Source: Hydrolagus colliei (lineage: Eukaryota). From it: DNA of 64,000 nt. Of this stretch, positions 381 to 55,077 are shown one piece after another. Each line of letters begins with the position of its first letter. The first letter of the stretch is position 1. The position numbers and the translations under genes were made by a program. The notes below the pieces were generated by a model. That model ran no database searches. It was given only the letters and a program-made list of their open reading frames with translations, and had not been told where the DNA came from. The DNA lies in contig CM068760.1 in assembly GCA_035084275.1 (NCBI GenBank), positions 7,998,001 through 8,062,000 on the forward strand, given 5' to 3'.

Positions 381-480
381 GTTGGCGAAGTATGACTCAA
401 CTTGTCAACTTGCACAAGATACTGCTGAACACATCCATGAACGAAACAGGCAAAAGAGAACTGGTGGCAATCCTGCAAAG
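381..480 (+). CDS. STX8: Syntaxin-8 coding exon 2 (Habc N-terminus; (W)[33 protein letters not shown])
   Basis: Acceptor ttctgcag ends at 380, donor gtacat starts at 481; 100 bp. Peptide resembles human STX8 WFSTYDSTCQIAQEIAEKIQQRNQ as recalled. Confidence 0.95.
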
Positions 481-6600: not shown

Positions 6601-6695
6601 TTGAATGCAGCAATTCGAGTAAATCTCCAAAAACTCCAGGAACAGATCAGCCAACTGAAGGAAGTGTTGTTGCGGAACTTATCCATACGCCAGAT
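6601..6695 (+). CDS. STX8: Syntaxin-8 exon 3 (LNAAIRVNLQKLQEQISQLKEVLLRNLSIRQ(I))
   Basis: Polypyrimidine tract plus cag ends at 6600; donor GTATCCTT at 6696; 95 bp; phase-compatible with exons 2 and 4; resembles human LTVTIRALLQNLKEKIALLKDLLLRAVSTHQI. Confidence 0.93.
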
Positions 6696-7615: not shown

Positions 7616-7726
7616 TACACAGCTCGAAGCAGACAGACGACAAAATTTGGTGGATGATTTGCTAACAAAAGAGCGACAACTTCAAGCATCTTTCAAGAAG
7701 GATGGCACGGAACCTGATATGATCCG
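7616..7726 (+). CDS. STX8: Syntaxin-8 exon 4 (TQLEADRRQNLVDDLLTKERQLQASFKKDGTEPDMI(R))
   Basis: ttcag acceptor, gtatga donor; 111 bp; close to human TQLEGDRRQNLLDDLVTRERLLLASFKNEGAEPDLIR. Not covered by the ORF track. Confidence 0.95.
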
Positions 7727-13288: not shown

Positions 13289-13413
13289 GTCCGGCCTGAT
13301 GACTAGGGAGCTCAGGGATATGCCCAACAACCCATGGTTAATGGAGGAGTCAGAGGACACCAAAGGACTTGACTTTGGGCAAATCAAACATCAACAACAA
13401 AAGATTATTCAAG
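13289..13413 (+). CDS. STX8: Syntaxin-8 exon 5 (SGLMTRELRDMPNNPWLMEESEDTKGLDFGQIKHQQQKIIQ)
   Basis: tttttctttcttcag acceptor, gtacaa donor; 125 bp; conserved NPW and QQQKIIQ motifs; inside ORF 13224..13466. Confidence 0.95.
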
Positions 13414-13699: not shown

Positions 13700-14059
13700 T
13701 ATTCCCAATGAAGCCGAGCAATTTTACTTTATAGTCTTGTTTCGGATTAGATTGTCTGGAAAATGTAAGTGTAATGGATTCAGATAGATATTTAGAAGAA
13801 TCACAGCTGCAGTAATGACCATTCGTCAAAATAATGGGATTGGTATTTGATTTAAATCCTGAGGTTTTATTTGTCACCACGTTTTTACAGTTTGGTTTCT
13901 TTGATGCAGCGTAACATTGCTGTAATGTGAGATGCTTCTTTTGCAATTTGCCAGAAACTTGGTTGCTAATAGTGAGTAGTAATAACTTCTTGTGCTATGG
14001 GTAATTTAACTTGACTGCCCAGGAACCATACCAGGCCATCAATGCTGAAAATCTACACA

Positions 14060-14385
14060 TATTCAGGAACGTTCGCATCTTCTTTGACCCTCAACTATCT
14101 TTTCTACCCCACATTCTTGCCGTGACCTGCTCTGTCTTCTTCCACAACTCGCCCGGATCCGCCTCACCATTGGCCGTCAGCCTCTCCCCCCCACCCCCAC
14201 CCTTTGGAACTCTATCCCACATTCCCTTCACCTCAAGTCCTCGCTGCCTGCTTCGAGGCGCATTTCAAGACCCTCCTCTTTGACTGTGCCTTTGGTAAAC
14301 CTCCCAGCCCTAACCTTCCCCTCTTGATCCCATCTCGGGTCCAAATCGTTGACTGTCCAATGCCTTGGAAATCCTCGTGATGTGG
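14060..14385 (+). mobile_element. Decayed L2-type LINE fragment
   Basis: ORF 14011..14283 contains FDPQLSFLPHI, also seen at 32989; ends gactgtccaatgccttgg. Confidence 0.75.
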
Positions 14386-14454
14386 TCCTCCTCTGATCGG
14401 TTACAAAAACTGAGTGCGAAAGTAGAGGTTAAAATGCTGTTATGCAGAGACAAC

Positions 14455-14836
14455 ATTGGTGTCTGCTTTTGCTCCCACAAAATACACAGTCCACTTTACA
14501 GTATATTCTATATATTCAACCATGGTTGGGAAATACAAGGCCCTATGGGAAAAAATGGGATAGGGGGAGTAAGTTGCTTGTTCTTTTACTAAACACAAAA
14601 AAATACACAAAAATCTAACAAAAACAATAAATGTTCAAATAACACAATCAAAAAAATTAAAAACAATAAATTCATGTTGTTTGCCTTAATCCTAAGAGAG
14701 AAGCGACATCATGGCTGGTTGATTGCAACATCGCAACTGGGTCCTAGCGCCAGTTTATTCTGTGAGGTGCTTTGAGACGTCTAGAAGATGTCAAAAGTAC
14801 CATATCAAATACAAGATTATTATTTATTATTATTAC
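14455..14836 (+). mobile_element. SINE 3' half split by a 246-bp insertion (14510-14755)
   Basis: Consensus ...ctttacagtatattct|gtgaagcgctttgag is interrupted exactly at tattct, which is present on both sides. Confidence 0.7.
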
Positions 14837-15286
14837 TTTCCAGCAACAATCTCTGGATAGCAACAGAGAATGTGAGCCCTGGTCAATTTTTAACAGTATA
14901 ACATAATAATCTTTGCATTTGATACAGCTCCTTATCAGGCCATTGAGACATCTCAAAGCGCTTCAAAATGATCTGTTGGGAATAAATCTAGTCGGACCTA
15001 AGTGGTCAAGAAGGCCAGAGATTACAGAATTGGCTTCCTCAAATCTGCATCCCAGATCTTGGCTGTTATTGCACTGCACATATCGTAATTGAGGTCAATT
15101 TACTCCACTTTGGTCATTATGCAAAATGCCTCAGAAGTATTCAGTGATTGCTCTGTTGCTTGGGCCCCGGGGGACAAATGTGGAAAGGAGGGAACGTTGA
15201 TCTGGTCTGTCCTGATGCACTTCAAGTTTTGTGTCCTTCGTACAGATAAGCACAGGTTGCAGAGGAGGCTATGCTGCAACAGAAGT

Positions 15287-15530
15287 AACAACAACAAAAT
15301 TACACTTGTACAGCGCCTTTCATGTCTGGAGGATGTCCCAAGGCCCTGGACAGTCACTGTGTCAGTCCCCGGGTGGGGATGCGGGGGAGGGTAGGTGGGT
15401 TAGGAGTTGCTGATGGGACCGTCGAAGAGGAGAGTTTTGAGGTGGAACTTGAAGGGGGCCAGGAAGGGGGCGAGGCGGAGGGACTGCGGGATGGAGTTCC
15501 AGAGGTTGGGGGCAGAGTGGCTCACTTCCT
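15287..15530 (-). mobile_element. L2-type LINE 3' end
   Basis: aacaacaacaaaattacacttgtacagcgcctttcatgtc...ggagttccagaggttgggg; (TTG)n tail on the minus strand. Confidence 0.8.
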
Positions 15531-15611
15531 AGTCCAGCAGCCTTTCCTTTGCTTGTGGATATTACAATAAGGTTTTTAAATTGTGTTTTTTTGTATTCTC
15601 TCTATATTCAG

Positions 15612-15704
15612 AACAAGATGCGGGTCTGGATGCTCTAGCAACAGTAATAGCCAGACAAAAACAAATGGGTCAAGACATAGGAAATGAACTAGATGAACAC
15701 AATG
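15612..15704 (+). CDS. STX8: Syntaxin-8 exon 6 (N-half of the Qc-SNARE motif: (E)QDAGLDALATVIARQKQMGQDIGNELDEHN)
   Basis: tattcag acceptor, gtaaga donor; 93 bp; near-identical to human EQDAGLDALSSIISRQKQMGQEIGNELDEQN. Confidence 0.97.
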
Positions 15705-16694
15705 GTAAGATGTTTTCAAGTTTTAGTACTGTTTCCCAACACTTTCCTAATGTCCGACTTGTATGACAGATTGTTCAGGGATTGTTGTATGCAAGAGGCT
15801 GCAGAAAATTTAATGAAAGCCAGACATTTACATGTCATTTACATTGACATAGCTCGCCATTTGCAAATGCCAGATCCATTGAGGCACTGTATTTAGAGAT
15901 TAACTTTCAGGAAATAACTGGCTTGAGTTAGAATCCTGCTGGAGTCTTTGTTTCCCAGTATAGTGTCATTGTTGATTACAAACACACAAGGCTGATAAAC
16001 CACTTCAGATGGTCAATAAAACTGATTTTTGAAATTCCAGTGTTACACCGGGCCTGTGAGAATGCCTACAGTTCATTAATCTGTGTGTGATTTTTTTTAG
16101 CATTCTACAGGTGGAAGCTTTGCCTGTTGTTTATTTGTGGTTGTGTTTCCGAGCAATTGGGCAAGTGTGGTTTTGCTCATATTTGAGGGTAAAGTGGTAC
16201 AGTAAAATTAATAAAAATAAACAAACAAACAAATAAATATTGCTTGCATTTGAGATAGCGTTTTACATGTCTTCTAGACGTTTCAAAATGCTTCACCGAA
16301 TACACTAAAGAGCATAGACTATATATTTGCGGTGGCCTACAAAATATAGTTTCTTATACAGTCATTTCACTTTACAGTTTATTCTGTGAAGTGCTTTGAG
16401 GTGCCCTGAAGATTGGACAAGGCACTATATCAAATGCAAGGATTATTATAGATTATTATATCACAGTTTTAGGACTGCCCAGTAGTTTTGAAGCAAGTGG
16501 AACAACCAAACCACACGGGAGTTTATCAGCCTTCTAATTCCCATATGTTTTCTTTAGATTATATTATGTTTGTTTATTAATAATAATCCTTACAGTAACC
16601 AATTTTTTTTTTAAAAAATTGAAACATTTATTATCCTAGGAAAAGTGATCTGCCATTTGACTAACGTCAAGTTACTACTTACTGCTCGGTATAC

Positions 16695-16803
16695 AGAGGC
16701 ATATGGAGTAAGGAAACTTGCTTAACTTTTGTCCCTGCCCAGGAATCGAACCTAGGTCTTCTCGTTTGTGGGGCAAGCACTCGAACCACTGAGCTACAGG
16801 ACT
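16695..16803 (-). mobile_element. SINE tRNA head fragment
   Basis: Reverse complement of gtcctgtagctcagtggttcgagtgcttgcc...ggttcgattcc. Confidence 0.8.
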
Positions 16804-20809: not shown

Positions 20810-21129
20810 ATAATAATAATTCTTACACTTGATATACCGTAGGTCTTTTCACATTTTCTAGACGTCGCAAAGCACTTCACAGAAACTACTGTAAAGTGAA
20901 TTGACTGTATATTTGTGGGCAAAACGCAGCAGCCAATTGTGCACAGCAGCGTCTCACAAACAGCCGTGAGTTGAAGCGACCAATTTATTATTGTTCTTCT
21001 TGTTCCTTGAGGGATTATTATCAGGCATGTGGAATAAGGAAATTTGCCCAAGGTTTCACCCTGCCAGGAATCGAACTCAGGTCTCTCGTGTGCAAGGCAA
21101 GTCCTCTAACCACTGAGCTACAGAACTCC
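20810..21129 (-). mobile_element. Full-length tRNA-derived SINE
   Basis: Complete head, CORE-like, Deu-like and tail modules on the minus strand. Confidence 0.9.
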
Positions 21130-22394: not shown

Positions 22395-22515
22395 TTTTCT
22401 TGAGGGATTATTATCAGGCATGTGGAGTAAGGAAACTTGCACACCCTGCCTGGAATCGAATCCAGGTTGCTCGCTTGCGAGGCGAGTGCTCTAATCGCTG
22501 AGCCACAGGACTCCC
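22395..22515 (-). mobile_element. SINE 5' half
   Basis: gagggattattatcaggcatgtggagtaaggaaacttgc...gagccacaggactcc. Confidence 0.85.
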
Positions 22516-29147: not shown

Positions 29148-29320
29148 GGAGCCCTGTAGCTCAGTAGTTAGAGCACTCGCCTCGCATGCGAGAGGGCATG
29201 GATTTGATTCTCAGCCAGGGCGAAACGTTGATCAAGTTTCCTTACTCCACACGCTTCGGTTTACATAGCAGTAAGTAGGAACCAGGTTGTTAGTCGATTG
29301 GTGGAATTGATCCGTTTCAT
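29148..29320 (+). mobile_element. SINE 5' half, long-CORE variant
   Basis: tRNA head followed by caagtttccttactccacacgcttcggtttacatagcagtaagtaggaacc. Confidence 0.8.
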
Positions 29321-42519: not shown

Positions 42520-42830
42520 GGAGTCCTGTAGCTCAGTGGTTAGAGCACTTGCCTTACAAGCAAAAGGCCTGGGTTCAGTTCCAGGCAGGGCGAAACCTTG
42601 GGCAACTTTCCTGACTCCACACGGCTAACAATAATCCCTCAAAAACCCCCAATAATAAATGGGTTATTTCAATCCACGACTGTTTTGGGGACATTGCTGT
42701 GCACAATTGGCTACCTCGTTTCGCCCACAAATATACAGTTAATTTACTTTACAGTATATTCTATGAAGCGCTTTGAGACGTCTAGAAGACTTGAAAGGAA
42801 CTATATCGAATGCAGGGATTATTATTATTT
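42520..42830 (+). mobile_element. Full-length tRNA-derived SINE
   Basis: ggagtcctgtagctcagtggttagagc (A box), gggttcagttcc (B box), body, hairpin tail, (ATT)n. Confidence 0.92.
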
Positions 42831-49247: not shown

Positions 49248-49520
49248 ATAATAATAATAATCCTTGCAGTTGATATAGTACTTTTCACATCATCTGGATG
49301 TCTTCAAGATGCATTTTTGTGGGTGAAACGCAGCAGCCAATTGCTCACAGCAGTGTCCCCACAAACAGTCCAGTGACCAAATTATGATATTTTTCTTGAG
49401 GGATTATTATCAAGTGTGTGGAGTATGGAAACTTGCTCAAGGTTTCGCCCTGGCTGGAATCAAATCTAGGTCTCTCGCTTGTGAGGCAAGTGCTCTAAAC
49501 AGTGAGCTGCCGGGCTCCTC
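49248..49520 (-). mobile_element. SINE with internal deletions
   Basis: Tail, body and head motifs on the minus strand. Confidence 0.85.
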
Positions 49521-54975: not shown

Positions 54976-55077
54976 AGATCATTGATGACCTGACCCATTT
55001 GGTGGATACAACCGATTCCAGGATTCGCAACGAAACGAGACGAGTCAAAGTGCTCGATAAGAAGTCGGCGTCTTGCG
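54976..55077 (+). CDS. STX8: Syntaxin-8 exon 7 (C-half of the SNARE motif: (E)IIDDLTHLVDTTDSRIRNETRRVKVLDKKSASC(G))
   Basis: Long polypyrimidine tract plus tgcag ends at 54975; gtaggt donor; 102 bp; matches human EIIDDLANLVENTDEKLRNETRRVNMVDRKSASCG. Confidence 0.96.

Follow-up and report, generated by a model that had tools for sequence, protein, structure and literature searches.

Histidine at the SNARE zero layer of syntaxin-8 in the chimaera Hydrolagus colliei: one of two residues found there among vertebrates

Syntaxin-8 (STX8) of Hydrolagus colliei carries a histidine, His179, at the zero layer of its Qc-SNARE motif. This residue is real and ordinary, and public sequence records already show it in the elephant shark and in many fishes. 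We hold it highly probable that the gene is an intact, single-copy STX8, with His179 being one of two zero-layer residues in use among vertebrates and the His form likely a normal Qc-SNARE.

Exons 2–7 of STX8 lie within the window (the whole 64,000-nucleotide stretch of DNA that was analysed) and form an open frame. The features, in window coordinates, are:

381..480, forward strand: STX8 exon 2 (100 nt)
6601..6695, forward strand: STX8 exon 3 (95 nt)
7616..7726, forward strand: STX8 exon 4 (111 nt)
13289..13413, forward strand: STX8 exon 5 (125 nt), its end joined to exon 6 by RNA reads
15612..15704, forward strand: STX8 exon 6 (93 nt, AG/GT ends), covering the N-terminal half of the SNARE motif up to and including layer 0
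15698..15700, forward strand: codon CAC for His179, zero layer of the STX8 Qc-SNARE motif
54976..55077, forward strand: STX8 exon 7 (102 nt), the C-terminal half of the SNARE motif
16730-16802, 21056-21127, 22441-22512, 29151-29222, 42522-42593 and 49446-49515, both strands: tRNA-like matches, with the best score at 42522

The complete gene has eight exons and an open reading frame of 236 codons: coding exon 1 (17 nt, G000:C27:7996937-7996953) is located upstream of the window, and exon 8, which starts at G000:C27:8071518 and encodes the hydrophobic transmembrane tail and the stop, is located downstream. The preliminary description had reached residue number 179 by assuming a 17-nt first exon; with that exon found, the number holds without the assumption. 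The translation of exon 6 is EQDAGLDALATVIARQKQMGQDIGNELDEHN, and the CAC codon is near the end of the exon. The protein has the architecture expected of STX8, namely an N-terminal helical domain, one SNARE motif and a C-terminal transmembrane anchor in about 236 aa. Its assignment to syntaxin-8 is borne out by 88.5% identity (184/208 residues over exons 2-7) to STX8 of the elephant shark Callorhinchus milii (XP_007886702.1, P0292), which likewise has His at 179 but, coming from another species, differs at 24 positions elsewhere; identity to the proteins of four elasmobranchs is 73-79%, in keeping with a holocephalan source. The named matches of a search with the His-bearing query (49 of the 52 set aside) were syntaxin-8, or hypothetical proteins with the UniRef name Syntaxin-8 or none. 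Searching the 1.0-Gb genome yielded a single STX8 locus and no second, Gln-bearing copy, such searches giving lower bounds. Decay to a pseudogene was considered and is ruled out by the open frame across eight exons together with the conserved layers.

The introns hold repeats of their own. The six tRNA-like matches in the 39-kb intron 6 score 29-52 bits and are likely the heads of tRNA-derived SINEs. In intron 5 (14028-15591) there are very high-copy repeats, with a summed contig depth of up to 2 million as compared to about 40-80 in unique DNA.

We assigned layers with SNARE layer offsets that we take to be the conventional ones. On this assignment, 14 of the 15 non-zero layers from -7 to +8 carry the residue most frequent among vertebrates, in agreement with the earlier view that the surrounding layers are conserved; the protein's Leu at layer +8 is common to 7/109. 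Exon 6 aligns without gaps to syntaxin 8 of PDB 1gl2_D (ELDEQN; E 3.4e-12) and to the C-terminal helix of SNAP-25 (EIDTQN), in both cases with His against Gln, and the available part of one study names Q179 as the 0-layer residue of STX8 (PMC4055267), all of which upholds the zero-layer register first proposed for this His. Read literally, the Q-SNARE definition asks for Gln at layer 0, and His179 falls outside it. Gln does not define the STX8 family, however, because 22 of the 120 best STX8 matches also have His.

To establish whether CAC is genuine we examined six of 22 sequencing runs, and the verdict rests on four of them: X1, X5, X6 and X21. Two runs were not counted: X10, in which the codon is uncovered, and X13, for which 2/7 differences are listed. 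The X1 contig, which may derive from the source sample, covers 15495-15950 with no differences, and that of X5, a run with the same organism label but a different sample and study, covers 15522-15950 with a single, intronic difference at 15551. For a related organism (organism B), the codon lies within the X6 DNA contig, and none of the differences listed for that contig falls on it. RNA run X21 of organism B contributes 45 reads, 41 of them at 99% or more identity, with a depth of 27 over 15690-15701 and no difference listed at 5%; the loose ends of these reads run on into exon 5 in 22 reads and into exon 7 in 22. Since the contigs of two samples and the spliced RNA of a relative all carry CAC, the codon is no sequencing error. 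What speaks for a mistake in the assembly, or for a rare private allele, is that H. colliei itself is represented by contigs rather than raw reads, and that X1 may be the source sample; contigs drop rare alleles, and this species may therefore still be heterozygous or harbour a rare allele at the site. Given that the codon recurs in the independent sample X5, in the DNA and spliced RNA of organism B and, as His179, in C. milii, we regard an error or private allele as extremely improbable.

A separate observation concerns window position 13312, at which the window has T, the X6 DNA contig C and the X21 reads A (23/23 RNA reads); X6 and X21 bear the same organism label, and the difference between them is one of alleles or populations.

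How widespread is His at this position? A Gln-bearing ray STX8 query returned, among the best 120 of 478 matches, 22 proteins with His, 98 with Gln and none with a third residue; here and below, protein rows are representatives of 90%-identity clusters, not species. The His-bearing query, which is biased towards His, gave 20 His and 32 Gln among 52 proteins. His is present in 9/9 members of the C. milii cluster. The fishes carrying it, over both searches, include Erpetoichthys (reedfish), Acipenser (sturgeon), Chanos (milkfish), Xyrauchen, Triplophysa, Polymixia, Myripristis, Thalassophryne, Sphaeramia, Anabas, Siganus and Scatophagus, as well as Fundulus, Nothobranchius, Iconisemion, Kryptolebias and Nematolebias, killifishes among them. 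His is also found in two amphibians (the caecilian Geotrypetes and the frog Leptodactylus) and in the echinoderms Antedon, Anneissia and Acanthaster. A deeper search (best 150 of 1772) added 145 matches, of which 18 do not cover the site and the remaining 127 comprise 96 Gln, 30 His and 1 Asp; the distant matches, taken by similarity, are putative orthologues. Nineteen of these, picked mostly for His, were looked up, and seven had no name. His carriers among them are a fourth echinoderm, Apostichopus, together with Tachypleus, Hypsibius, Sitophilus, Ixodes, Fabomonas, Ancoracysta, Naegleria and a protein clustered with Polysphondylium violaceum; Gln is found in the hagfish Eptatretus, Priapulus and Plakobranchus. 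An unnamed distant STX8-like protein (P0249) has Asp at layer 0.

The preliminary description had mentioned His at this layer in some fungal and amoebozoan syntaxin-8 proteins, and this was sound: the accessible text on Beauveria bassiana reports a zero-layer His in BbSyn8 and mentions such substitutions for Aspergillus oryzae too (PMC11204939), and an amoebozoan-cluster protein (P0255) has His as well. BbSyn8 thus resembles the H. colliei protein within the same family, although it is fungal rather than vertebrate and the spread of His in vertebrates goes undiscussed in the part of that paper available. The suggestion that His would be novel in a vertebrate, in contrast, did not survive the searches, since His is widespread in vertebrate STX8 (22/120 best matches to the ray query), a finding that the preliminary description had itself named as one that would undo the novelty. 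Our literature searches, the coverage of which lay outside the main SNARE classification papers and supplements, returned nothing that deals with a vertebrate STX8 bearing His or with Q179H, and no assay of any His-bearing STX8, and the accessible portions of PMC2639358, PMC8041195, PMC11091695 and PMC3680383 contain nothing on a His zero layer. Because key classification papers fell outside this coverage, the vertebrate Gln/His relaxation may already be in print; SNARE alignments in papers' supplements could show vertebrate His.

To follow the site through evolution we hand-coded a species tree on the general outline of vertebrate phylogeny, with polytomies, and placed on it 111 named vertebrate proteins (89 Gln, 22 His), leaving out unnamed rows, extra isoforms and invertebrates. 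Parsimony requires at least 17 Gln/His changes at layer 0, as compared to a mean of 20.7 when labels are shuffled (0.85% of 2000 shuffles at or below 17). Of the core layers, layer 0 is the most changeable: among the other 15, +2 comes next with 9 changes and -5 after it with 8, and seven never change; on the same tree it ranks with the fastest six of 62 positions of the STX8 motif. In the paralogue STX6, Gln is present in 97/97 proteins covering the site among the best 120 of 472 matches, these rows not being independent and the other 23 proteins being without the exon that bears the site. Within STX8, Gln is fixed in 9/9 elasmobranch and 7/7 amniote proteins on the tree.

Those partners of STX8 that were identified in this genome have canonical zero layers. 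STX7 and VTI1B have Gln at the zero layer, as in a complex of the 1GL2 type (syntaxin 7, vti1b, syntaxin 8 and endobrevin), and VAMP7 has Arg; an STX12/13-like exon and an STX6 exon have Gln. Two further exons, which by general likeness we take to be VAMP4-like and VTI1A-like, carry Arg and Asp at layer 0, respectively. The Asp of the latter (L039, G000:C15:780926-781012, reverse strand) matches PDB 2nps_C. Another R-SNARE (L030/L031, G000:C1:50461382-50468730, reverse strand), an uncertain candidate for VAMP8, has Arg at layer 0 and, in a PDB search, is about equally distant from VAMP8, VAMP4, VAMP2 and yeast Nyv1. The genome search found no clearer VAMP8 and one VAMP1/2/3-type exon, a result that may reflect the reach of the search itself. 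Inspection of the partners for compensation, as had been advised, revealed no zero-layer change in STX7, the STX12-like protein, VTI1B or VAMP7. Mammalian STX8 in PDB 1GL2 shares the register of the SNARE motif but has Gln179 in place of His179, and the 2Q:1H:1R core proposed for the endosomal complex accordingly still stands as a prediction, with canonical Q, Q and R from STX7, VTI1B and VAMP7.

Our preferred explanation is that the site drifts between two tolerated residues. A neutral imidazole, similar in size to Gln, would be able to take a hydrogen bond from the R-SNARE arginine in a 2Q:1H:1R layer without a charge clash. Because one third-position change interconverts CAR and CAY, the site would be expected to drift between Gln and His, with selection presumably removing the other one-step neighbours (K, E, R, P and L from Gln; N, D, Y, R, P and L from His). 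The sizeable His minority and the missing third residue among the best matches to the Gln-bearing query are consistent with such drift, as is the non-Gln zero layer present in the structure of a vertebrate endosomal complex: VTI1A (PDB 2NPS chain C) is, like H. colliei STX8, an endosomal Q-SNARE departing from Gln, although it is a Qb helix and has Asp rather than His. In yeast Sso1, according to the part of the study available, every substitution of Q224 except R, P and K grew normally, and all of them cut sporulation to some degree (PMC2600744); since sporulation was always lowered, replacing the zero-layer residue may carry some cost. Against drift stands the roughly 4 to 1 excess of Gln over His, and this excess, together with fixation in elasmobranchs and amniotes, could reflect a mild preference for Gln. 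In the sections of the literature accessible to us, STX8 Q179A is described, by citation, as unable to form SNARE complexes (PMC4055267), BbSyn8 with its His is speculated to be perhaps not a conventional SNARE (PMC11204939), the role of the ionic layer is called contentious and an added Arg is shown to be harmful (PMC4970327), and PMC3750193 holds nothing further on the zero-layer mechanism. The His variant is likely harmless.

Two other readings bear on the same counts. The preliminary description had offered His as either a retained ancestral state or a reversion; the tree favours neither, a Gln gnathostome ancestor costing 17 steps vs 18 for His, and shows repeated switching instead. That His was the state of the ancestral jawed vertebrate (or deuterostome), was kept in chimaeras and gave way repeatedly to Gln is a reading we would entertain only tentatively. 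It draws on the presence of His in lineages that branch early (C. milii, reedfish, sturgeon and the four named echinoderms) and on the root of the ray-finned fishes, at which His is favoured by one parsimony step (13 vs 14), but it has to contend with Gln in hagfish, elasmobranchs and coelacanth, with the extra step at the gnathostome ancestor, and with a root state that so many switches make unrecoverable. Being a statement about history, it is compatible with drift. An adaptive account, in which the Gln and His forms are functionally unequal (in how stable the complex is, in proofreading by HOPS or in disassembly by NSF) and selection favoured one or the other by lineage, strikes us as unlikely. 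The restriction of switching to STX8 (STX6 keeping Gln), the retention of His across whole clades (the sampled holocephalans and the aplocheiloid killifishes) and the slight shortfall of changes relative to shuffled labels would suit it; however, retention within clades is expected from shared descent, and in our judgement chimaera, reedfish, killifishes, frog and weevil have no obvious habitat or physiology in common. At a nominal threshold of p < 0.05, His is associated with the residue at six positions (smallest p = 0.0002, at positions 187 and 150). These values are uncorrected for relatedness or multiple tests, and for this reason no clear partner site emerges. A two-state Gln/His switch at the STX8 zero layer that tunes how stable the late endosomal SNARE complex is, or how it is recycled, is to our mind an improbable form of this idea; were it true, pairs of fish species would be natural experiments on the purpose of the ionic layer.

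As a finding from a single genome, His179 carries little weight: the residue is public for the elephant shark and other fishes, and His in fungal Syn8 is in print. What remains is a small matter of molecular evolution: at the best-known of the conserved layers, STX8 in particular switches between Gln and His, and across the vertebrates its helix admits either residue where the textbook 3Q:1R layer has Gln.
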